A stretch of 64,000 bases of DNA from a virus (lineage: Duplodnaviria > Caudoviricetes), in IMG/VR virus record IMGVR_UViG_3300029288_000060, positions 192,001 through 256,000 of that record. One strand, 5' to 3'. Below, one piece after another: positions 12,027 to 63,208 of this stretch. Made by a program: the position numbers and the translations under genes. A model generated the notes under the pieces. It was not told the origin of the DNA. It ran no database searches and saw only the letters and a list, made by a program, of their open reading frames with translations. Position 1 is the stretch's first letter. Every line of letters starts with the position of its first letter.

Positions 12027-12284
12027 TTAAAAATAATTTTTATACTTATCTAGTAATACTATACCTATCAAAAGTATGACTAACCCTAAGGATACACCAA
12101 AAAAGTATATATGAGCACCCATTAGTTTAAGTACATGAAAAAAAGCTGACCATATTATAAATGCTCCTATTGAAATCATACATATTCCAAAATTTTTTAA
12201 GAAATTTGCGCGGGTTTTGTTCATTTTTCCTCCATTACTTATTTCAAAAACTTTTATATTTCTTTCTTCATTTATTAAAATCAA
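12027..12284 (-). CDS. hypothetical two-TM membrane protein
   Basis: Hydrophobic segments; start probably at MNKTR. Confidence 0.6.
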   Translation of the reverse strand: MILINEERNIKVFEISNGGKMNKTRANFLKNFGICMISIGAFIIWSAFFHVLKLMGAHIYFFGVSLGLVILLIGIVLLDKYKNYF

Positions 12285-54348: not shown

Positions 54349-55503
54349 ATGGAAAAAAGAAATGTGCCTTTATCAAGATTATGGATTGATAAAAATGAAT
54401 TAATCGAAGTCAAAAAAGTTTTAGAAACTGGATGGTTGACAAAAGGTCCTAAAAATTTAGAATTAGAAAAAATGGTATCTGAATATTTGGGTGTAAAACA
54501 TGTTGTATGTACTTCCTCTTGTACTACAGCTTTACATTTAGCAATTGCGTCATTAGGTATTATTACTAAACAAGGTGAAGAAGATGAAATATTGGTAGCA
54601 GATTATACATATCCAGCAACTGGTCACGCTGTTAAATATTGCGGTTTAAAACCAGTTTTTGTTGATATTGATAAGAAGACTTATAATATGGATTACAAAG
54701 ATTTAAAGAAAAAAATAAATAAAAAAAGAACCAGAGCAATAATTGTTGTACATACCTTTGGTCAGTCTGCAGACATGGAAAAGATTATGAAAATTGCTAA
54801 CAAGAAAAATATTCCAGTAATTGAAGATGCAGCGTGCGCTTTAGGATCTAAATTTAAAGGACAATATTGTGGAACAATAGGAAAGATTGGATGTTTTTCA
54901 ATGCATGCTACAAAAGGTGTAGCGACTGGAGAAGGCGGACTTTTAGTAACCAATGATGATGATATTGCTATAAGAGCAAGGAGTCTTGGTTCATTTGGTT
55001 TAAATACTTGGAATAGAGAAATAAGTAAAGAGTTTAATATTCCAGTATTTGAAAATATAGGTTTTAACTATAAAATGAGTGATTTATCTGCTGCAGTTGG
55101 TATAGCTCAATTTAAAAAATTAGGTAAAATTATTAAAAAGAAAAATGCTCTTGCTAGATATTGGAATAAAAGATTAAAAGAAATTGATTATATAGAAGCT
55201 CCATATATCAGAAAAGGAAAAGGAAACATACATAATTATCAAGGTTATAGTTGTTTGGTATCTCCAGTTGTTAATAGAAATAAATTAATCCAAGTATTAA
55301 AAGATTATGGTATTCAATGTCAGATTGGTACTTATTGTTCTTATATTCAACCTTGTTATAATAATGAAGAAGACGAATGTTTTAATTCATTAGATGTATA
55401 TAATAGATCTATTAGGTTACCTATGTTTTATAAGCTAAAAAGATCTGATATTGATTATGTAATTGATATATTAAAAGAGATTAGAAGTCAGGTATTTATT
55501 TAA
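54349..55503 (+). CDS. DegT/DnrJ/EryC1/StrS sugar aminotransferase
   Basis: SSCTTALH, IEDAACALG, FSMHATK, GEGG, GFNYKMSD. Confidence 0.95.
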   Translation: MEKRNVPLSRLWIDKNELIEVKKVLETGWLTKGPKNLELEKMVSEYLGVKHVVCTSSCTTALHLAIASLGIITKQGEEDEILVADYTYPATGHAVKYCGLKPVFVDIDKKTYNMDYKDLKKKINKKRTRAIIVVHTFGQSADMEKIMKIANKKNIPVIEDAACALGSKFKGQYCGTIGKIGCFSMHATKGVATGEGGLLVTNDDDIAIRARSLGSFGLNTWNREISKEFNIPVFENIGFNYKMSDLSAAVGIAQFKKLGKIIKKKNALARYWNKRLKEIDYIEAPYIRKGKGNIHNYQGYSCLVSPVVNRNKLIQVLKDYGIQCQIGTYCSYIQPCYNNEEDECFNSLDVYNRSIRLPMFYKLKRSDIDYVIDILKEIRSQVFI

Positions 55504-55676
55504 ACAAAAAAATATAAGGAGGCGGGCAGGGCTCTTTATATGAGCCCATCCCGCCTGATGGTTTGAGAGGCGGGAGACATCCTAGTCATCCCATTCTCTG
55601 GTGCGAACAGAGCAGTCGTTTATTCCATTGGACTTTTCGCACTCCTCAAGATTATCGACTCTTTTTAATTCCTCTC
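55503..55676 (-). ncRNA. candidate structured ncRNA A (rod-like hairpin plus terminator)
   Basis: GC-rich, no ORF; 5' GAGAGG pairs with CCUCUC, GUGCGAA with UUCGCAC, AGUC with GACU; hairpin 55520-55556 followed by a U-tract. Confidence 0.65.
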
Positions 55677-55693
55677 AAAAATTAATATATGTA
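55676..55693 (-). promoter_or_regulatory. phage promoter-like motif
   Basis: TACATATATTAAT-TTTT-GA. Confidence 0.7.
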
Positions 55694-55730
55694 ATAGGTA
55701 ATTTTATAATGAATTTCTTCGAGGCTAAAA

Positions 55731-56663
55731 ATGAAAATTTTAGTTAGTGGGTCATGTGGATTTATCGGATTCCATCTTTGTAAAAAATTATTAGAATTAG
55801 GGCATGAAGTTATTGGTATTGATAATTTTAATGATTATTATGATCCGCAAATAAAAAGTGATCGATATTTAAAATTAAATAATTGTGTTATACTTGGAAA
55901 TATTGAGGATCCTAATACATATAGAGATATACCTAAAGTAGATTTAGTTATTCACTTAGCAGCTCAAGCTGGAGTAAGATATAGTCTAATTAATCCAGAA
56001 TCATATATCCAAACTAATATTTTAGGATCATTTAGATTAATAGATTTCGCTAAAAAATGTGAATGTGAAAGATTTATTTATGCATCATCTGCATCAGTAT
56101 ATGGAAAAAATCAAATTCCGTGGCATGAGGAAATGAATTTATTAGAACCAATTAGTTTATATGGAGCAACTAAAATATCCTTAGAATCTATAGCAGATTC
56201 ATATTATGAAATGTTTGGTTTAAAATCTGTTGGTTTAAGATTCTTTTCTGTTTATGGACCTTGGGGAAGACCAGATTTATCTTTATGGAAATGGACAGAA
56301 GGTATACTAAAAAATGAACCAATTAAGATTTTTAACTATGGAAAAAATAAAAGATCATGGACTTATATAGATGATTTAATTCCAGGTATAATTAAAACAT
56401 TAACTTCTGAAGGAAATATCGAAAAATTTAATCTTGGTTCTGATAGATTGGTTGATATAGATTATTCAGTTACTTGCATAGAAAATTATTTAGGAATTAA
56501 AGCAAAAAAAGAATACGAACCAATGCAGGATGGGGATATAGTTGAAGCAAATCCTGATTTAAATAAATCTAAAAAAATATTAGATTTTAATCCAGAAATA
56601 GAATTTGAAGAAGGTATTAAAAAATTCATAGATTGGTTTAAGGAGTATAAAAATTATGAATAA
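55731..56663 (+). CDS. UDP-glucuronate 4-epimerase-like SDR
   Basis: GSCGFIG, HLAAQAGVRYS, YGATK, VYGPWGRPD. Confidence 0.9.
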   Translation: MKILVSGSCGFIGFHLCKKLLELGHEVIGIDNFNDYYDPQIKSDRYLKLNNCVILGNIEDPNTYRDIPKVDLVIHLAAQAGVRYSLINPESYIQTNILGSFRLIDFAKKCECERFIYASSASVYGKNQIPWHEEMNLLEPISLYGATKISLESIADSYYEMFGLKSVGLRFFSVYGPWGRPDLSLWKWTEGILKNEPIKIFNYGKNKRSWTYIDDLIPGIIKTLTSEGNIEKFNLGSDRLVDIDYSVTCIENYLGIKAKKEYEPMQDGDIVEANPDLNKSKKILDFNPEIEFEEGIKKFIDWFKEYKNYE

Positions 56664-57120
56664 CTTTATAAAAGATTGCGATTCATTAAATGCTCCAGAA
56701 TTAGCCTATTTTGTTTTACATAATAAAATTAAAAGAATTGGTGGCAGAGAAGCTAATCATATCGCTCGTTTAATAAATGGAATTGAAATTGACTTAAGGA
56801 TACCTGAAAAAGAGATGAAAATATTAATGGCTTTGAAAAAAGTTGAAATGCGTTCATCTTGTGAAGGCAGTGAAAATTATGGACCATTTTTTATTTTTAG
56901 ATTTGTTGATAATAAAGATAAAAAATTTATAAATTCATTTTGTGATTATATGATGTATAAAGATTCATCAACTCTTTCTAAATTTGGAATGGGAAGAATG
57001 AATGAATATAGAATAATTGTTACTGGTAATTTTTTAAAAGATTCAGTTACTAAAACTGAATATAATAATTGGTGGAAAAATGTAACAAAAAAAATGGAGC
57101 ATTTTTGTAAGAATAATTAA
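56656..57120 (+). CDS. hypothetical protein
   Basis: 154 aa ORF with SSCEG motif. Confidence 0.7.
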   Translation: MNNFIKDCDSLNAPELAYFVLHNKIKRIGGREANHIARLINGIEIDLRIPEKEMKILMALKKVEMRSSCEGSENYGPFFIFRFVDNKDKKFINSFCDYMMYKDSSTLSKFGMGRMNEYRIIVTGNFLKDSVTKTEYNNWWKNVTKKMEHFCKNN

Positions 57121-57126
57121 TTGTAT

Positions 57127-57455
57127 AAACAAAAAAAAAGTGGGGGACGATATTCGATCATCCCCCTTATCGCAACCCGACCCGAACCATATTTAATGGA
57201 TTATCTCCATGGAATTTTGGGGGGTTGCAATTTTTTAATAATCTCCCAGCGCAAGTTTTTCTTTTTGAGTAAAAGAGATCGGACTGACGTCGCTGGGAGT
57301 GCGCACCTTTTCACATTGTCTGCTGGTTAGTACCTTAGCGAAGAAGAGGCCTTACTTTTGCCAGCATTCAAAAGTACTTCTTTCGTTTCTGGTTTTCAGA
57401 GTTTCTCAAGCTCCTAGAACAGAAATTCAGTACCGACCTTACCTTCTTTCTATTC
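57127..57455 (-). ncRNA. candidate structured ncRNA B (multi-hairpin, pseudoknot)
   Basis: Several strong stems, loop UGCUGG complementary to downstream CCAGCA, terminator 57142-57166 plus U-tract, promoter motif at 57455-57472. Confidence 0.7.
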
Positions 57456-57487
57456 ATAAATAAATATATATAAAGGATCATTTAATA

Positions 57488-58564
57488 ATGAAAAAAATTG
57501 TTACTATTATTGGAGCAAGGCCGCAGTTTATAAAAGCCTCTGTAATATCGAATTTAATAAAATATAGAGATGATATAGAAGAAGTAATAATTCATACTGG
57601 TCAACATTTTAATGAACTAATGTCTGATATTTTCTTTAAAGATTTAAATATACCTGAACCGAAATATAATCTCAACATTTCTAGTTTGTCGCATGGTGCT
57701 ATGACTGGGAGAATGATATCTGACATTGAGGTGGTATTAAATATTGAAAAACCAGATTTAGTTCTAGTATATGGAGATACTAATTCAACTTTAGCAGGAG
57801 CATTAGCTTCTAGTAAACTTGGTATTCCAATTGCGCATGTTGAAGCTGGGCTTAGATCATTTAATAAAAAAATGCCAGAAGAGATAAATAGAAAACTAAC
57901 TGATCATGTTTCTGATTATTTATTTTGTCCCACTATAAAATCCTTAGAAAATTTAAAAAATGAAGGAATAATCAGTAACGTAGAATTAGTTGGTGATATT
58001 ATGTATGATTCCTTTCTTAATAACCAAAAACGAGACAAAAATTGTTTAGAAAGTATAAATTTAAAATCAAAAGAATTTTGTTTATTAACTTTGCATAGGC
58101 AAGAAAACACAGAAAATTATAATAAAATTTGTGAGTTATTAAATGCAATTAATATTATTTCTAATGAAAATAATTATAAAACTATATTTCCTATGCATCC
58201 AAGGATTGTTAAATTTCTAGAAAAAAATAATTATGACTTTTCTAAAAATAAAGATATTTACTTTATTGCTCCATTATCTTATTTAGATATGATTTGCTTA
58301 GAAATAAATTCAAAACTTATTTTTACAGATTCTGGCGGAATTCAAAAAGAAGCATATTGGGCAAAAACTCCTTGTATAACTTTACGAGAAGAAACAGAAT
58401 GGGTTGAATTATTAGATACAGAAATGAATGTATTAACGGGATTAAATAATGAAAAAATAAAATCAGAATTTCTTAATTTTGAAACTAAATATTTGAATTT
58501 TAGTAATCCTTTATATGGTGATGGGAAAACTGGACAAAAAATTTTAGAAACCATAACTAAATAA
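57488..58564 (+). CDS. wecB: UDP-N-acetylglucosamine 2-epimerase (non-hydrolysing, WecB/WbpI-like)
   Basis: GARPQFIK, HTGQH, VYGDTNS, HVEAGLRS, PEEINR, TDSGGIQKEA. Confidence 0.93.
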   Translation: MKKIVTIIGARPQFIKASVISNLIKYRDDIEEVIIHTGQHFNELMSDIFFKDLNIPEPKYNLNISSLSHGAMTGRMISDIEVVLNIEKPDLVLVYGDTNSTLAGALASSKLGIPIAHVEAGLRSFNKKMPEEINRKLTDHVSDYLFCPTIKSLENLKNEGIISNVELVGDIMYDSFLNNQKRDKNCLESINLKSKEFCLLTLHRQENTENYNKICELLNAINIISNENNYKTIFPMHPRIVKFLEKNNYDFSKNKDIYFIAPLSYLDMICLEINSKLIFTDSGGIQKEAYWAKTPCITLREETEWVELLDTEMNVLTGLNNEKIKSEFLNFETKYLNFSNPLYGDGKTGQKILETITK

Positions 58565-58568
58565 AAAC

Positions 58569-58593
58569 AAAAAAACAGGTTGCCCTGTTTTTT
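58569..58593. terminator. bidirectional intrinsic terminator
   Basis: AAAAAAACAGG-TTGC-CCTGTTTTTT between convergent genes. Confidence 0.75.
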
Positions 58594-58610
58594 CCTTCAT
58601 GTGGAAGATA

Positions 58611-58751
58611 TTACTTATCTGTTTTTTCTTCCACTCTGAAGATGTTCACGGCCCTTGTATCAGGCGGATAGACACGGTTTAGAAATTTTATAAACTCTTT
58701 CAGATCTGTGTTTGTTCCCGAGTATGATACTATCAATCCTCTTTCTTCCAT
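58611..58751 (-). CDS. small hypothetical protein, 46 aa (not in ORF track)
   Basis: MEERGLIVSYSGTNTDLKEFIKFLNRVYPPDTRAVNIFRVEEKTDK with AAGGAGG RBS. Confidence 0.7.
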   Translation of the reverse strand: MEERGLIVSYSGTNTDLKEFIKFLNRVYPPDTRAVNIFRVEEKTDK

Positions 58752-58771
58752 TTGTTTCCTCCTTTTTATAA

Positions 58772-58847
58772 GTTAGGAAATGGGGTAGGATTCGAACCTA
58801 TAGCCTCCGGAGCTTTCTCAAGACACCTATTGTCTCCCATTCCTAAC
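58772..58847 (-). ncRNA. tRNA-like element without an anticodon arm
   Basis: Acceptor-like stem, GACA-AUAGG-UGUC D-like arm, UAGG-UUCGAAU-CCUA T arm. Confidence 0.6.
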
Positions 58848-58852
58848 ATTTG

Positions 58853-59227
58853 TTATATAAAATTTTCAAGTTCTTTTATCCATTTTCTTGGAAGTCGTCT
58901 TACTACTTTTACAACTTTTTTGTTAAATATTATCTTGATAATTCTAAATCTTTTTCCTTTTCCTACTGGTATGAAAAATAAAGATCTAATGTTGGTAATC
59001 CAATAACCTCGTTTTTTATGATGATACCAATGTGAGTTATATCCAATAAATGGAATATGATAGCTCTTTAAAAAAGCCTTCACATCTATTAATCCACCTT
59101 TTACTATAAATGGAGAATCATCTGAAGTTTTAGGATAAATAAAAGCTATAGTATATGGGTTTACATCTACCCAGCTTCTTTTTATGTTATATTCAAATTC
59201 CTTTCTGACCTTCAGCTTCATGCTCAT
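58853..59227 (-). CDS. hypothetical basic protein
   Basis: 124 aa ORF with GGAGG RBS. Confidence 0.7.
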   Translation of the reverse strand: MSMKLKVRKEFEYNIKRSWVDVNPYTIAFIYPKTSDDSPFIVKGGLIDVKAFLKSYHIPFIGYNSHWYHHKKRGYWITNIRSLFFIPVGKGKRFRIIKIIFNKKVVKVVRRLPRKWIKELENFI

Positions 59228-59247
59228 AAGACCTCCATGATTTTTAT

Positions 59248-59429
59248 AGTATTAGAAAGGGCATAGATGGACGTCACTACTTATTTAACTTCATGACGCC
59301 CATCTATTTTAGGTTTTCGTTTTACGATTCATTATTTATCCGTATAACCTTGCCCAAATTTCTGATCTTTATGGGATATTATTATAAATAATATCCCTTC
59401 AAAACTAATACAACTAACCCACTCTTTTC
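59248..59429 (-). ncRNA. structured 5' leader or ncRNA C
   Basis: Nested stems GGGCA/UGCCC, AUAGAUGG.CGUCA/UGACG.CCAUCUAU, AGGUU/AACCU and a GGGAUAUUAU hairpin; promoter motif at 59429-59447. Confidence 0.55.
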
Positions 59430-59518
59430 ATATATTAATATATATAGCATGATAAACTAAACTTAAAAATTTAATTGTTTTAAGAATGATTGAACAAAAA
59501 ATAAAAGAGGATTTTTAT

Positions 59519-60202
59519 ATGAGTTATCCACAAAACCCTGAAACATTAGTAATAAAAAATGAATACTATCCATCAGGTTTATCCGAAATAAACGTATGGA
59601 ATTATTATCAAAAAGTTAAAAATCAATTATTAAAAGAAACAATTGGTAAAAGTTTAATTATCTTTTTTTCTATTGATTTAAACAAATTTACAGTTATTAG
59701 AAAACAACAGTCAAAAGGGTTAATAAGATTAACTCCTTCAAATTACAATACAATTGTTAGTGGCAGAACAATTAGCTTTCATAATGTAATGGGTAAATAT
59801 TCTAATTATGGCATTATAGATATAGATACAGATAATTTTAATAAAGCTAAAGATTTAGTTTTAGAACTATATGATTTATTTGATAAACAAAAATTTGTTA
59901 GTGATATTAAAATAATATTTACTGGTAAAAATTCCTTTCATTTAAGAACATATTTCAATGCTGAATATAAAATTGAATATATTAAACAAACATTATTTGA
60001 TGTTTTACAAGGTGTTAAATTACAGAATCCATTTACAGTAAGAGCCAGAAGAATAAAAGATATACCAAATTTAGACTTACAAAGAAATATTTATAACGCT
60101 GGACATATTGCTTTACACTCATTGAGTGTTGATGGACTTAAAGTTATAGAAGTTAAACAAAAAAATATAAAATTTTTTAGAAAAGAAGATACAAAAATTT
60201 AA
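59519..60202 (+). CDS. archaeo-eukaryotic primase / LigD polymerase-like protein
   Basis: IIDID (motif I), FTGKNSFH (motif II), LDLQRN (motif III). Confidence 0.72.
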   Translation: MSYPQNPETLVIKNEYYPSGLSEINVWNYYQKVKNQLLKETIGKSLIIFFSIDLNKFTVIRKQQSKGLIRLTPSNYNTIVSGRTISFHNVMGKYSNYGIIDIDTDNFNKAKDLVLELYDLFDKQKFVSDIKIIFTGKNSFHLRTYFNAEYKIEYIKQTLFDVLQGVKLQNPFTVRARRIKDIPNLDLQRNIYNAGHIALHSLSVDGLKVIEVKQKNIKFFRKEDTKI

Positions 60203-60204
60203 TG

Positions 60205-60241
60205 AAAAAACAAGAATTTAACTTGTAAATTCTTGTTTTTT
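60205..60241. terminator. bidirectional intrinsic terminator
   Basis: AAAAAACAAGAATTTA...TAAATTCTTGTTTTTT between convergent genes. Confidence 0.75.
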
Positions 60242-60247
60242 CATTTA

Positions 60248-60928
60248 TTAATAAAATAATGATGTTTCCCTTCTTTGATCAATACTACATTCATCCTCCC
60301 AGAAATCATCAACAAGTTCTTCATAGAGTTTTCTGTCTTGTTCTTTAATTTCCTTTGTCAATATACTCCTTGATTTTATTAACTTTGATTGGTTCCGCCG
60401 GACCCATTTTTTGAATGGTTTCCAACTCACCTCGATTACTGAATCATAGTAAGAGGTAACTTTTCTTATAAATCCAACGCGTTGTTTTTGCCATAAGCTG
60501 AAGGCTTTACCAAAGTCTAGATCAAGCACTTCTATCGTAGCATTTCTCATGGCTAGTTGCAAAAGATCATAAAATGGACCAACTTTTTTTCCATGTTTAG
60601 TGGGATAATATTTTGTCATATAATCAAGACTTGGATGATTATAAATATTTTCTAAAGGTTTTTTGACCTCTCGACCTGTTTGTTTGACCCTACTTATAAT
60701 TTCTACTACAAATCCTACATCAAAGGAATTAACTACTTCTTTTGAAATTAAGGATGAACTTACCGGAGGCCTAGTATCCACAATTGGCTCGACTGTTATT
60801 AAATCAGAGCAACCAAGTCTTTTCTTGACATGAATTACTTTACCTGTTATCTCAGCTCCAGAGCTGTAGTGTGGTAATGATACTTTAACGATATCACCAA
60901 GACAAATGATTTTACAAATTTGACTCAT
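60248..60928 (-). CDS. hypothetical protein
   Basis: 226 aa ORF with GGAG RBS. Confidence 0.75.
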   Translation of the reverse strand: MSQICKIICLGDIVKVSLPHYSSGAEITGKVIHVKKRLGCSDLITVEPIVDTRPPVSSSLISKEVVNSFDVGFVVEIISRVKQTGREVKKPLENIYNHPSLDYMTKYYPTKHGKKVGPFYDLLQLAMRNATIEVLDLDFGKAFSLWQKQRVGFIRKVTSYYDSVIEVSWKPFKKWVRRNQSKLIKSRSILTKEIKEQDRKLYEELVDDFWEDECSIDQRRETSLFY

Positions 60929-60939
60929 ATTTCCTCCCT

Positions 60940-61125
60940 TTAATAATATCCGCCGACTCTTCGTTTGTTATACTCTTCAAGGTCAACCTTGTCATATTCT
61001 ACTACAAGGTATAAAGTATGTTCGCCTTCCACTGTTATAGACTTTTCAACATTTAGAGTTCCACCTTCTTTCTGAACTAATTCAAAAAGAAGGACTAAGT
61101 TTTCAGCATTTATTATTTTTTTCAC
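60940..61125 (-). CDS. hypothetical protein
   Basis: 61 aa ORF with AGGAG RBS. Confidence 0.65.
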   Translation of the reverse strand: MKKIINAENLVLLFELVQKEGGTLNVEKSITVEGEHTLYLVVEYDKVDLEEYNKRRVGGYY

Positions 61126-61141
61126 TTTATCTCCTTTTTAG

Positions 61142-61423
61142 TTAAATAAACCCATCATGAGTATAATAACAAATCATGACGTTATCAAGGTTTCCATGTG
61201 GACAATTTCCTTGAATAGTAATAAGGTCAGTTATTTGGTTTTTTGCAATTCCGGTAAGTTTTGTATCACTTGGGTATTGTTGAAGGATTGTAATTAATTC
61301 TCCAACAGTTCTTTGTTTGGGAACCATCTGATCCATTTTTTCGATTTCTTTGATATTACATACTTCACATTTTTCATCCCTAAAACAAAAGAATCTATCT
61401 GATTTTTTACATATTATTGACAT
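61142..61423 (-). CDS. hypothetical protein
   Basis: 93 aa ORF with TVGELITILQQYP motif. Confidence 0.7.
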   Translation of the reverse strand: MSIICKKSDRFFCFRDEKCEVCNIKEIEKMDQMVPKQRTVGELITILQQYPSDTKLTGIAKNQITDLITIQGNCPHGNLDNVMICYYTHDGFI

Positions 61424-61473
61424 GGTAATTTCTCCTTATTTAAAATAAAATTTGTTTAAAATAAAAAAAGGGA

Positions 61474-61800
61474 TCACTCCCTTTCTTTTGTTATCGTTTC
61501 GATTTCGGTACTAATCTTTTTGAACAGGTTATCCCCACCTTTATAACGATGGAAGATTTCTTCTAGATCTGGTATAAACGTCGGATCTTTTTCGACGCCA
61601 TTTTTTAGAAGTATTAACGCTTCTCTTACCATTGAATAGAACTTTTTTTCTGTATCGGCTTCTATGGCTTCCAGAGTGTGTTCATGAGCTTTGAGAAATT
61701 TCTCCTTAACCATAGCGTATGTTAGAATGAAGAGGATGATATTATATCCTCTGGCGTATATTCTCTTTAATCCCCGCCAAAATTTTTTTAATAAATTCAT
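61474..61800 (-). CDS. hypothetical protein
   Basis: 108 aa ORF with AAGGAGG RBS. Confidence 0.7.
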   Translation of the reverse strand: MNLLKKFWRGLKRIYARGYNIILFILTYAMVKEKFLKAHEHTLEAIEADTEKKFYSMVREALILLKNGVEKDPTFIPDLEEIFHRYKGGDNLFKKISTEIETITKERE

Positions 61801-61817
61801 CCTTTCCTCCTTTTAAA

Positions 61818-62099
61818 TTAGCCGTGAGCAGCGATTAAGAATTTACCGTTGCGTCCATCGTCATAATAAACTTGTCGAGTTTTGTGGACGATCGAATGGA
61901 AGACAACAAGATAGGCCCAAACTGCCATAGGGCCAGTAAGAATTACCTCTTGTTTATCAATTTCCAATTTTGCTATGTTACGACCTACAATATTAATCGC
62001 TTTATCTACAGGCGTTATCAGGTTTAATCTTCCAGCAACTTCTATAATAACACATCCCGCATATAATTCTGTATTTTCTAAACCAAGATTGATAAACAT
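61818..62099 (-). CDS. Csx3/Crn3-like protein, candidate cyclic oligoadenylate ring nuclease
   Basis: VILTGPMAVWAYLVVFHSIVHKTRQVYYDDGRNGKFLIAAH resembles the recalled Csx3 core VVISGRGPIW..H...H...YDPR..VVxSH. Confidence 0.55.
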   Translation of the reverse strand: MFINLGLENTELYAGCVIIEVAGRLNLITPVDKAINIVGRNIAKLEIDKQEVILTGPMAVWAYLVVFHSIVHKTRQVYYDDGRNGKFLIAAHG

Positions 62100-62154
62100 G
62101 TTAATCCTCCCCTTTATATATTATAGGATATTATAAATAATATCCTTTCATTCA

Positions 62155-62342
62155 AAAGAGTAGAGAACTGGCGCGGGTTCTCTACATTGGACTTTAGCAC
62201 CTACCTCGTAAGGCTGGTATCCACATCCACTTATTGTTCTTGGCGGGAATAACCTCAGACGTTAACCATTCACGTTCAGGTGAACTAGTTTTCTTAGGTA
62301 ACTAGTAACCTTAACTAAAATTAAAATAACCCTACCACTTTC
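62155..62342 (-). ncRNA. structured leader or ncRNA D
   Basis: GC-richer non-coding stretch with several hairpins, ending GUAGAGAAC-loop-GUUCUCUAC-UCUUUU. Confidence 0.55.
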
Positions 62343-62486
62343 AAATATTAATATATGTAGTAAATTGGGTTATATTGAATTATTTTTAGAACAAAATATA
62401 AATTTAAACAAAAAAGCTGTGGACTCGAACCACCCTCAAAAAATGATACACCTTTACTTTTCAAATATTAATATATGTAGTAAATT
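62339..62486 (-). repeat. duplicated 28-bp promoter-like element
   Basis: TTTCAAATATTAATATATGTAGTAAATT is identical at 62339-62366 and 62459-62486. Confidence 0.9.
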
Positions 62487-62509
62487 AAAATACAATGAAA
62501 GGAGTAATA

Positions 62510-63208
62510 ATGCTAACATTTGGAGTTTTAGGAAGTGGGTATATCTTTGAAAAACATAAACAAGCAATTGAAAAGATAGGTGGGAGAATAGTAAATATAT
62601 ATGATCCTCTCTTATCTAATCTACAAAAACCTGAACATTTATTTGAATATGAATTTGATTGGTTAGTTATATGTAGTCCGAGTAATACTCATTATAATTA
62701 TTTGAAAATGGGTTTGGAAAATGACAAGAATATTATTTGTGAAAAACCTACTTGGTTACCTTGGCAGATGCCAATAGATGATGATAGAATAAATGTTGTT
62801 TTACAATATAGATATTTAGAAAATTTGCCACAAGAAACAGTTAAAATTAGAATGGTTAGAGATGAAAAATATTTAAATTCCAGTAAGGGAAACACAAAAA
62901 TTACTGGGGGAATATGGTATAATCTTTTTATCCATGGTCTTGATTTAGCTTTAAAATTAAATGTAGATTTTGAAGGAATGATTGCTACAGAAGGAAAACA
63001 AGAAAGAATGGTTGGGGATTTTGATTTGAATTCCGTTGATATGGATACTTTATATGTTGAAATGTACAAAAAAATAATTTTTGAAAATAAAGGAATTAAG
63101 CCTCAAGACGTAATGTTTTTGCATTGGTGGTTACAACATCATAGTAATATACATGGGTATGGAAAAGATATGTTAAATAAAACTATCTATATAAAAAAAG
63201 AATTTTAA
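62510..63208 (+). CDS. Gfo/Idh/MocA oxidoreductase (WbpB/WlbA-like, short)
   Basis: GSGYIFEKH, ICSPSNTH, ICEKP, SKGNTKITGG. Confidence 0.8.
   Translation: MLTFGVLGSGYIFEKHKQAIEKIGGRIVNIYDPLLSNLQKPEHLFEYEFDWLVICSPSNTHYNYLKMGLENDKNIICEKPTWLPWQMPIDDDRINVVLQYRYLENLPQETVKIRMVRDEKYLNSSKGNTKITGGIWYNLFIHGLDLALKLNVDFEGMIATEGKQERMVGDFDLNSVDMDTLYVEMYKKIIFENKGIKPQDVMFLHWWLQHHSNIHGYGKDMLNKTIYIKKEF

Follow-up and report, generated by a model that had tools for sequence, protein, structure and literature searches.

Introduction

The early promoter of jumbo phage AR9, AAATATATATTAT-N6-G, has been mapped experimentally and is read by the virion RNA polymerase, and the late promoters of that phage form an AACA-containing class (PMC5312081). 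Early promoters of AR9/phiKZ-like phages are extended, AT-rich and almost invariant elements with the core ATATATATTA and a G start at a fixed short distance, present in a few dozen copies per genome (Lavysh et al., 2017). Promoter-cargo-terminator inserts between genes that are adjacent in relatives are known as morons (Hendrix) and as the PeSL cassettes of T4-like phages (Arbiol et al., 2010, PMC2839356; Comeau et al., 2014, PMC4122927), and in phiKZ, transcription that ends early within 5' untranslated regions yields short RNAs (Putzeys et al., bioRxiv 10.1101/2023.10.13.562163).

Here we describe five minus-strand units that lie amid plus-strand sugar genes in a 64,000-nucleotide stretch of viral DNA (the window; positions 192,001 to 256,000 of IMG/VR record IMGVR_UViG_3300029288_000060). 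An initial annotation had recognized the units from the sequence, and we confirm both that observation and the phage origin of the DNA, which belongs to a 268.8-kb jumbo phage with 28% GC and two RNA polymerase beta homologues. With moderate confidence, extending jointly to the type of phage, we propose that each of the five units is an early transcription unit of its own, and that an AR9/phiKZ-type jumbo phage carries them as accessory insertions with mixed cargo.

An early-type promoter class confined to one strand

The units would start at the following promoters, given with their predicted +1 positions and listed with the late-type promoters nearby:

55681..55693, minus strand: early-type promoter core of unit 1, exact motif (matrix score 39.1 bits; +1 G at 55676)
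57460..57472, minus strand: early-type promoter core of unit 2 (31.0 bits; +1 G at 57455)
59434..59446, minus strand: early-type promoter core of unit 3 (36.1 bits; +1 G at 59429)
62347..62359, minus strand: early-type promoter core of unit 4 (38.2 bits; +1 G at 62342)
62467..62479, minus strand: early-type promoter core of unit 5 (37.2 bits; +1 G at 62462)
59491..59507, plus strand: late-type promoter motif TGAACAAAAAATAAAAG, upstream of a 227-aa gene
62387..62403, plus strand: late-type promoter TAGAACAAAATATAAAT, upstream of the GFO/Idh/MocA gene

The five motif copies and their predicted start Gs stand where the initial annotation had placed them, and in unit 1 the conserved upstream T positions extend to about 55713. 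Across the whole genome, a position-weight matrix for the motif, TAYATATATTWAT-N4-G, finds 20 sites (17 exact), every one of them on the minus strand, with the plus strand free of the motif. Five of them fall within these 7 kb, where about 0.5 would be expected (Poisson estimate, P about 2e-4); with at most one mismatch, the motif occurs 14 times in the window against 6.4 +/- 2.5 in shuffled sequence, a count reached by 0 of 100 shuffles. An ORF with a Shine-Dalgarno sequence follows 18-48 nt from the predicted start at 13 of the 20 promoters, and long leaders or ORF-less promoters occur mainly in this 7-kb region. The same motif, in the same orientation, is found in the related metagenomic phage loci L001, L002, L004, L186, L190, L192 and L195.

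These results support the earlier proposal of a phage-specific promoter class, which closely resembles the mapped AR9 early promoter. As in AR9/phiKZ-like phages, an extended, AT-rich and almost invariant element has the core ATATATATTA, a G lies at a fixed short distance, the copies number a few dozen per genome, two polymerase gene sets are encoded, and a second motif class contains AACA; this class, at 31 intergenic sites, parallels the AR9 late promoters. Unlike in AR9, every copy of the early-type motif lies on one strand, and whereas the AR9 promoters were mapped by transcription, the uncultured phage described here is known from sequence alone. The reader of the early-type promoter is most likely a virion-packaged phage RNA polymerase, and from the promoter only we infer that the units are early and co-regulated. 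A scan of the region for sigma-70-type promoters gave no signal above chance. A sigma-70-like -35 box is another way to read the upstream T-20/T-19/T-15 positions, which makes the host polymerase a possible alternative reader and counts against our explanation.

The spacing from motif to start is one base shorter here (CTAYATATATTAAT-N4-G) than in AR9 (AAATATATATTAT-N6-G), an observation that likewise weighs against that explanation.

Units bounded by terminators at gene boundaries

Each unit lies wholly between coding sequences and ends at a gene boundary, overlapping no sugar-gene CDS, and the initial description of self-contained promoter-to-terminator cassettes is supported. As to its further claim that four units end in a hairpin plus a tail, the tail motif TTTTTTGTTT is present on the minus strand in all four (55502, 57127, 58565 and 62406), and the terminator scan returned minus-strand terminators for units 2, 3 and 4 and none for units 1 and 5, the unit 1 hairpin lying 8 nt from its U-run and that of unit 5 being a 4-bp T-arm. 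The tail is common genome-wide (28 minus, 11 plus) and therefore not specific to these units. We propose that each unit would be transcribed from its early-type promoter to an intrinsic terminator placed on the gene boundary.

Two small-protein operons behind long leaders

The features of units 3 and 4, all on the minus strand, are as follows:

59228..59429, minus strand: unit 3 leader, 202 nt (fold z = -3.95)
58853..59227, minus strand: unit 3 ORF, 124 aa, no assigned function, without homologue in relatives
58777..58843, minus strand: unit 3 tRNA-like element, in which an acceptor-like stem of 8 bp is joined directly to a T-arm (loop UUCGAAU)
58611..58751, minus strand: unit 3 small ORF, 46 aa, homologous to a 47-aa ORF at the same position in L190
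58569..58594, minus strand: unit 3 terminator hairpin (terminator scan), possibly bidirectional since A and T runs lie on either side
62100..62342, minus strand: unit 4 leader, 243 nt, with a terminator-like hairpin at 62160-62185
61818..62099, minus strand: first unit 4 ORF, 93 aa, Csx3/Crn3-like predicted fold (Pfam, structure model, Foldseek)
61474-61800, minus strand: unit 4 ORF, 108 aa
61142-61423, minus strand: unit 4 ORF, the second of 93 aa
60940-61125, minus strand: unit 4 ORF, 61 aa
60248-60928, minus strand: unit 4 ORF, 226 aa, no assigned function, from a small family (25 representatives)
60201..60245, minus strand: unit 4 terminator (terminator scan), a long A/U-flanked hairpin, possibly bidirectional

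The locus had been read as an array of non-coding RNAs, which it is not, as units 3 and 4 hold seven ORFs with ribosome-binding sites; the long leaders noted for two units are those of units 3 and 4. We suggest that these two units would be small-protein operons behind long GC-rich leaders with attenuator-like hairpins and a common palindrome. The unit 3 leader folds 10 kcal/mol better on the minus than on the plus strand and contains a GGATAT..ATATCC palindrome (59374-59396) that, with its flanks, is common to the L001 cassette; the unit 4 leader carries a palindrome (62126-62145) just 5' of the ribosome-binding site, in a layout repeated at the early unit at genome position 82971. The terminator-like hairpins of these latter two leaders match the pattern of phiKZ and other Pseudomonas phages, which have 5'-UTR-derived small RNAs as well as antisense RNAs and in which transcription from phage promoters that terminates ahead of the ORF yields short structured RNAs. 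Northern blots confirmed those RNAs; the ones described here are predictions and unrelated in sequence.

The initial annotation had also suggested host-takeover or counter-defence decoys, and at least one cargo gene, the one with the Csx3/Crn3-like fold, fits the counter-defence idea. The first unit 4 protein is 78% identical to a Falkowbacteria protein and has 493 homologues; most members of its family sit on Patescibacteria chromosomes, where no cas genes were seen nearby, and the protein probably derives from a Patescibacteria host. Its structure model (pLDDT 94.7) has Csx3 as all of its top 13 Foldseek matches, CARF/SAVED cyclic-nucleotide sensor domains as the next-best structural matches, and a VIA comparison of Z 6.7 (rmsd 1.8 A over 69 residues). 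It shares a size of about 95 aa and this best-matching fold with Csx3/Crn3 ring nucleases and viral anti-CRISPR ring nucleases, but differs from known Csx3/Crn3 in that identity is about 20% and the Pfam Cas_csx3 score is below threshold (E = 0.067). The protein may act against cyclic-oligoadenylate signalling.

Three units without ORFs

The remaining units are predicted to give the following transcripts:

55503..55676, minus strand: unit 1 ORF-free predicted transcript, ~174 nt (fold z, ORF scan)
57127..57455, minus strand: unit 2 ORF-free predicted transcript, ~329 nt, 42% GC (fold, terminator and ORF scans)
62406..62462, minus strand: unit 5 predicted transcript, ~55 nt, a 7-bp A/U acceptor-like stem followed by a T-arm

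A search for ORFs of at least 30 aa with a Shine-Dalgarno sequence found none in units 1, 2 and 5, the only three without a credible ORF, in keeping with the initial count. The unit 1 RNA would form a 112-nt multibranch core closed by GAGAGG/CCUCUC, then a GC-rich hairpin (55521-55555) and a U-run, and in unit 2 a terminal hairpin of 10 bp (57142-57166) would run into U9. The described GC enrichment is upheld for units 1 and 2 (0.35-0.42 against 0.22-0.30 in the flanks), and the greater self-complementarity weakens once terminators are removed: fold z is -4.6 for the whole of unit 1, and without terminators the cores score -2.7 (unit 1) and -1.7 (unit 2), where the genome background is -0.64 +/- 1.36. 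These cores are only modestly structured, and much of the apparent structure of the units is the terminator hairpin. No unit matched an Rfam family.

A tRNA-like T-arm module with a canonical UUCGARU loop recurs in unit 3, unit 5 (62419-62433, loop UUCGAGU) and the L001 leader. An acceptor-like stem set directly on a T-arm is also found in tRNA minihelices, mascRNA-type elements and the tRNA-like domain of bacterial Y RNAs; unlike these systems, the elements here have no anticodon arm and no encoded CCA. ARAGORN and the Rfam tRNA and Y-RNA-like models did not detect them, the unit 3 element reaching only 19 bits (E = 4.5) with Rfam tRNA-Sec. Unit 5, whose fold is no better than chance (z = 0.3), looks like a duplicated promoter in the leader of the plus-strand late transcript: its promoter duplicates 22 nt of the unit 4 promoter exactly.

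Insertion and cargo turnover among relatives

Related metagenomic phages have the motif and the gene order in common with the window, but units 2, 4 and 5 are missing from them, as is unit 1 from some, a pattern that marks the units as insertions of the moron/PeSL kind. The unit 1 site is empty in L004 and L187-189, where the gap between DegT and the epimerase is 8-13 nt; in L001, L004, L186 and L190 the 2-epimerase directly adjoins the epimerase or the 154-aa gene, and the 228-aa gene abuts GFO in L004. Three different RNA bodies occupy the unit 1 site in the window, L001 and L186. None of seven cassette proteins was found in the relatives' loci. The ORF-free units show little or no conservation: the only syntenic homologue of unit 1 is a weak one in L001, consisting of one 68-nt alignment (p about 0.004 against shuffles) with a single compensatory pair, and unit 2 is an orphan that no relative carries, not even L190, where the neighbouring 154-aa gene is kept, and that has no homologue in 401 Patescibacteria genomes.

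Like morons and PeSLs, the units keep conserved regulatory ends (the promoter and sometimes the terminator tail) around unrelated cargo that differs between phages. Terminator tails abut the next promoter at genome positions 30979/30966 and 258283/258270, and the units cluster in a plastic region. They differ in that the promoter is probably for a phage polymerase, not sigma-70 as in PeSLs, in lying antisense within a late operon and in that three are RNA-only; recombination at the motifs in this phage is something we infer.

Alternative readings of the ORF-free units

In our preferred explanation, units 1, 2 and 5 would carry RNA-only cargo, either GC-rich folded transcripts or a tRNA-like minihelix, and may be early small RNAs or leader-only remnants; the modest structure of the cores, the equal folding of unit 1 on both strands, the lack of unit 2 homologues and the single short alignment behind the unit 1 homology count against that explanation. 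It is unlikely, in our judgement, that they are non-functional debris, that is, leader-plus-terminator remnants or a duplicated promoter left after recombination lost the protein cargo, with an RNA that is possibly transcribed and inert. The orphan status of unit 2, the copied promoter and chance-level fold of unit 5 and the modest core z-scores are what such debris would look like, and since ORF-bearing cassettes of the window, L001 and L190 carry comparable GC-rich leaders (160-310 nt), a single deletion would suffice to make a leader-only unit. Against this, every unit keeps an intact promoter and terminator, GC enrichment persists within a 28% GC genome, and the RNA bodies at the unit 1 site have whole-unit fold z of -4.6 to -8.4, those of L001 and L186 with a strong folding preference for the minus strand that window unit 1, which folds equally well on both strands, does not share.

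That equality also bears on a quite improbable reading, in which the plus strand is the active one: the GC-rich elements would be intercistronic processing or stabilizing structures of the late sugar-gene mRNA, and the minus promoter incidental. Units 1 and 2 are not followed by a canonical late promoter, so the plus-strand mRNA has to run through both, and the unit 2 core folds better as plus (z -3.4) than as minus strand (z -1.7). Yet of 10 leader or RNA elements, 8 fold more stably as minus than as plus strand, with a gain of up to 20 kcal/mol and a larger number of G-U pairs. Each unit also has a full-score minus promoter and a minus U-run terminator, and relatives express the same operon without these elements.

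The initial suggestion that the units silence the glycan operon by antisense transcription is highly improbable and finds no structural basis: although the units converge with the operon, those of units 2 and 5 reach with their upstream promoter elements into the start regions of downstream plus-strand genes, and antisense promoters are known in AR9 and other phages, the units stay clear of sugar-gene coding sequence and close with a terminator at the gene boundary, relatives without them keep the operon, and early and late transcription are expected apart in time. That unit 2 hides a plus-strand gene in which TAG is a sense codon has a negligible chance, since the 112-codon frame given by TAG=Q (57121-57459), despite a CUA-anticodon suppressor tRNA in the genome, has a TTG start without a ribosome-binding site, atypical composition, zero Pfam matches and zero homologues in 5.8 billion proteins, and table 11 already yields a 93.7% coding genome.

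Late-type promoters beside units 3 and 4

The late-type promoter at 62387..62403 stands back-to-back with the unit 4 promoter, and the one at 59491..59507 is kept in L001 and L004; the true start of the 227-aa gene is likely 59520.

A probable early promoter motif on a single strand of the genome

Five minus-strand units, each running from promoter to terminator, lie within the plus-strand sugar-gene operon between 55503 and 62486, and all five promoter copies stand at the positions that the initial annotation had claimed for them, with a G, the predicted +1, 17 nt past the motif's first T in every copy.

Unit 1: predicted +1 at 55676 (-); no credible ORF
Unit 2: predicted +1 at 57455 (-); no credible ORF
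Unit 3: predicted +1 at 59429 (-); leader of 202 nt, then ORFs of 124 and 46 aa
Unit 4: predicted +1 at 62342 (-); leader of 243 nt, then ORFs of 93, 108, 93, 61 and 226 aa
Unit 5: predicted +1 at 62462 (-); no credible ORF

The genome-wide motif scan that had been proposed as a check returned 17 exact copies, and a position-weight matrix made from these, with a cut-off of at least 14 bits, gave 20 sites in the whole genome, every one on the minus strand, the plus strand having none. The sequence CTAYATATATTWAT is common to all 17 exact and 20 matrix-scored sites, and 5 of the 20 fall within 7 kb (2.6% of the genome); the observation is real and non-random. A generic sigma-70 scan of the region found promoters at chance level, with no excess. 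Upstream positions -20, -19 and -15 of the motif hold a near-invariant T, and a G stands at motif position +17 in 13 of the 17 sites, a spacing one base short of that in AR9. A fixed 6-nt distance to a conserved purine start is found in AR9, phiKZ and phiR1-37. Promoters of the AR9/phiKZ early class fire early in infection and depend neither on protein synthesis nor on host polymerase.

Early promoters of the AR9 type consist of an extended, highly conserved, AT-rich element with TATATATTA, as does the motif of this phage, and the phage consensus, CTAYATATATTAAT-N4-G, is almost that of the AR9 early promoter, AAATATATATTAT-N6-G. The latter was mapped via dRNA-seq and primer extension and was given to the virion polymerase because it is active without protein synthesis (PMC5312081). 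From this likeness we infer that the motif is probably the early promoter of the phage's own virion polymerase.

There are 31 intergenic sites genome-wide with a second motif, TAGAACAAAWAWWAAAT, which is directed toward the next gene and recalls the AR9 late motif AACA-N6-TA/G; within the cassette region it is present only at 62387-62403 and 59491-59507. The sequence AAACAAAAAA was considered as the plus-strand late promoter and rejected as a general rule in favor of TAGAACAAAWAWWAAAT, the true late motif, of which it may be a weak variant. Across the whole genome the late motif often stands back-to-back with the early motif at 30-50 bp, forming eight divergent pairs, and its sites in the window include 26301, 26373, 26812 and 62389. 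One such pair is:

62359 (-) with 62389 (+): divergent early and late motifs

The phage and its kind

The genome is a single viral sequence of 268,812 bp with 27.8% GC (the window being bases 192001-256000), and it has genes for a Dda-like helicase and a clamp loader as well as a long sugar-modification operon. Two separate loci exceed the cut-off for the RNA polymerase beta subunit (PF00562), a count that concerns beta subunits only; phages of the AR9/phiKZ type encode two multisubunit RNA polymerases. The beta homologues and gene content together mark it as an uncultured jumbo phage, of the type equipped with multisubunit polymerases of its own. When the region was compared with isolate phages by BLAST, the sole match was a chance-like one of 71 nt; the genome has no close isolate phage. 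Four tRNAs are encoded, one with a CUA anticodon; this suppressor-type tRNA lies outside the window, at G000:C1:263759-263829 (+) in the phage's own genome. As 93.7% of the genome is coding sequence under table 11 despite the CUA tRNA, amber recoding, if any, must be local.

The units as inserted cassettes

Related contigs, retrieved via the flanking sugar enzymes, carry the early motif in the same orientation, and their gene order indicates where the units have been added. The gap between the DegT and epimerase genes is 8-13 nt in loci L004 and L187-189 and in the P0126 contigs, all from related metagenomic phages; in the window, L001 and L186, an ORF-free, promoter-bearing spacer of approximately 200-230 nt parts these genes. 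The epimerase gene adjoins the 2-epimerase gene in L001, L004 and L186, and in L190 the 154-aa gene is present and overlaps 2-epimerase, so unit 2 is unique to the window's phage; by the same reasoning units 4 and 5 are unique to it, since the 228-aa gene adjoins GFO in L004 and L195. Upstream of the 228-aa gene there is in every case a minus-strand cassette, with contents unrelated between phages. The seven cassette proteins of the window do not recur in the relatives' loci, save for the 46-aa ORF, to which an ORF in L190 corresponds.

In two relatives a gene occupies the site of unit 1, just upstream of the epimerase gene:

L190, 160-1404 (+): TnpB/OrfB_IS605 gene
L191, 4386-4925 (+): HNH endonuclease gene

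These genes mark the junction as a general insertion hot spot.

Judged by their layout, the units follow the pattern of morons, as they have their own promoter and terminator and lie between genes that are adjacent in relatives (L001, L004, L186-L190, L195). They also resemble PeSLs, the promoter-terminator modules behind the exchange of cargo among T4-like phages (PMC2839356; PMC4122927), in that a composite terminator stem-loop directly precedes an early promoter. The U-rich TTTTTTGTTT tail of one unit lies within the upstream element of the next promoter at genome positions 30966 and 258270, and the unit 4 promoter has its upstream element 33 nt from the unit 5 terminator. The two systems differ in that PeSLs carry a sigma-70-type promoter of a T4-like phage, whereas the motif here is of the AR9 type and belongs to a phage with its own polymerases. 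Our best reading is that the units are accessory cassettes behind early promoters, with a cargo that is part protein and part RNA, akin to the known kinds of AR9-type early promoters, morons and PeSLs, and phage leader-derived small RNAs.

Protein cargo of units 3 and 4

The initial annotation described the array as non-coding, a description that fits units 1, 2 and 5, which are ORF-free, and fails for units 3 and 4, which are protein operons. The leader of unit 4 contains, in order, a terminator-like hairpin (62160-62185), an A/U-rich palindrome closed by GGAU/AUCC and a ribosome-binding site, a layout found again in the early unit at genome position 82971; in phiKZ, premature termination in 5' leaders that yields short RNAs has been documented (bioRxiv 10.1101/2023.10.13.562163). 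The palindrome, GGATAT-(A/T)n-ATATCC, recurs at window positions 59374-59396 in unit 3 and 62126-62145 in unit 4, at 12236-12253 in the cassette of L001, and at two other intergenic sites, G000:C1:93187 and 125850; it may be an operator, an RNase III site or a hairpin for translational control. Minus-strand start codons follow it at a distance of 25-150 nt.

None of the cassette ORFs had a significant hit in Pfam or PHROGs, and IMG/VR, searched with the 226-aa protein of unit 4 and the plus-strand 238-aa neighbor, gave no matches. The first ORF of unit 4 offers more:

61818-62099 (-): first ORF of unit 4, 93 aa, Csx3/Crn3-like fold predicted

It has at least 493 homologue clusters at 60-78% identity, mostly from Patescibacteria, the closest among the matches listed being a Falkowbacteria protein, and it has the coding sequence and not the leader in common with these homologues. 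The family is strongly conserved, with H68, H72, D81 and H92 as its invariant residues. In a structural model (pLDDT 94.7), Foldseek ranks 1-13 were all Csx3 (probability 0.95-1.0, E = 6.5e-3), and VIA placed Csx3 at a middling Z of 6.7 (rmsd 1.8 A over 69 residues) with CARF and SAVED domains next; the Pfam score for PF09620 was 13.5 bits, below the cut-off of 21. Given the middling Z and the subthreshold Pfam score, we treat the predicted Csx3/Crn3-like identity as a fold-level lead. Csx3/Crn3 enzymes are ring nucleases that cleave cyclic tetra-adenylate. Taxa that carry the 93-aa family include Falkowbacteria, Paceibacteria and Saccharibacteria, with some Acidobacteriota and Bacteroidota MAGs.

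This Falkowbacteria-like gene is also a clue to the host, in the direction of Patescibacteria. The mainly Patescibacterial range of the family, together with sugar enzymes approximately 50% identical to those of Wolfe-, Komeili- and Kerfeldbacteria, hints at a CPR/Patescibacteria bacterium as the host of the jumbo phage. To our knowledge, very few phages of Patescibacteria have been described, and no jumbo phage biology.

The ORF-free units 1, 2 and 5

That units 1, 2 and 5 lack a credible ORF, as first proposed, was confirmed: none contains an ORF of at least 30 aa with a Shine-Dalgarno sequence. A plus-strand frame of 112 codons in unit 2, read with TAG as sense, was rejected, having no ribosome-binding site, Pfam match or homologue. 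The extra self-complementarity ascribed to the units held for whole-unit folds (z of -4.6 for unit 1 and -5.0 for unit 2) and proved modest once the terminator hairpins were removed (-2.7 and -1.7, with a genome background of -0.64 +/- 1.36). The minus strand folds better in 8 of 10 such elements from the window and its relatives, by up to 20 kcal/mol and with more G-U pairs, a bias that favors minus-strand RNA; unit 1 of the window folds equally on both strands.

The syntenic counterpart of unit 1 in L001 folds into a multibranch structure of high stability (z = -8.4) behind a variant promoter (16/18 positions), and aligns with unit 1 over a 68-nt 5' part (p about 0.004). The two also have a 7-bp helix in common, GUGCGAA/UUCGCAC versus GCGCGAA/UUCGCGC, with one compensatory change. 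At the same site in L186 the promoter and the TTTTTTTGTTTAAATAA terminator tail are those of the window, and the body between them (z = -4.6) is unrelated. A pattern scan of IMG/VR with the promoter and the start of unit 1 recovered the L001 contig alone, and unit 2 had no relative in anything searched. Apart from promoter and palindrome, BLAST and nhmmer detected no paralogue or homologue of units 1-5 in the sequences covered, which were the phage's own genome, 13 related loci, three viral records of relatives and, from Patescibacteria, five genomes plus a sample of 401.

The proposed Rfam check came back empty, with nothing at the gathering threshold across the 64 kb and only chance-level matches (E up to 5) in 55400-62600. 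Readings of the units as 6S-like RNAs or riboswitches, as well as Y-RNA-like, ribozyme and manA/wcaG models, were without model support, and a link to the guide RNA of TnpB, prompted by the TnpB gene at the unit 1 site of L190, was rejected for want of similarity. The ORF-free units may be functional RNAs or leader-only remnants. A further early-promoter unit without an ORF lies outside the window:

G000:C1:31320-31435 (-): RNA of ~92 nt, GC-rich branched hairpin, U7 end, next ORF 487 nt downstream

RNA-only early units therefore occur outside the glycan operon too.

tRNA-like minihelices

A scan for intergenic T-arm hairpins with UUCRANY loops marked the four tRNAs and three non-tRNA sites, at 58777-58843, at 62419-62433 and at genome position ~77432. 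In the two elements of the window and in the leader of L001, the T-arm runs straight into the 3' strand of a closing stem, the 5' strand of which begins at the predicted +1 in unit 5 and L001. ARAGORN called no tRNA in the window and the best match to the Rfam tRNA clan reached 19 bits, where the gathering score is 47; with only an acceptor-like stem and T-arm present, we reject tRNA identity and classify these elements, by sequence and predicted topology, as tRNA-like minihelices. Fold energies are unremarkable, so the support for minihelices is T-loop sequence and topology. The third element lies outside the window:

G000:C1:77350-77440 (-): 8-bp acceptor-like stem GGCAGGAG/CUCCUGCC, canonical T-arm, 3' CCA-like end, no normal anticodon arm, no ARAGORN call

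What the RNA cargo may mean

The architecture of the cassettes is solid, and the functions of their RNAs are conjecture. One proposal, which we rate as a long shot, is that the ORF-free cassettes carry exchangeable RNAs for counter-defence, in a phage of a Patescibacteria (CPR) bacterium. The injected virion polymerase would make structured RNAs and tRNA-like minihelices in the first moments of infection; these would serve as decoys or sponges for host RNA- or tRNA-targeting immunity, or for RNA-processing enzymes; and related jumbo phages would trade the cassettes at sites of promoter-terminator recombination, as they do protein anti-defence genes. Provided that transcription of the units follows the prediction, the locus shows that RNA-only cargo, besides small proteins, fits the accessory 'moron' slots of jumbo phages of the phiKZ/AR9 type, and that this cargo turns over among close relatives while the polymerase-specific promoter is kept. 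In that case promoter motif, GC-rich island and terminator together would form a simple sequence rule for finding early accessory and anti-defence cargo in uncultured jumbo phages.

Relation of the units to the sugar operon

Silencing of the operon by antisense transcription, suggested at first, finds no support in the arrangement, as every unit lies between coding sequences with its terminator at a gene boundary. Units 1 and 2 have no canonical late promoter behind them, so a late plus-strand mRNA must read through both, and the hairpins of these units have no U-run on the plus strand, consistent with read-through. The terminators of units 3 and 4 are A/U-flanked and possibly bidirectional, and a late promoter comes after each unit, at 59491-59507 and at 62387-62403; unit 5 lies inside the leader of the late transcript from 62387-62403. 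The layout looks built for leaving the operon undisturbed rather than for silencing it. The plus-strand 238-aa ORF (region 59486-59520), as listed, begins within its own late promoter, and its true start is likely the ATG at 59520 behind AAAGAGGA, which gives a protein of 227 aa that fits the 228-aa orthologues.
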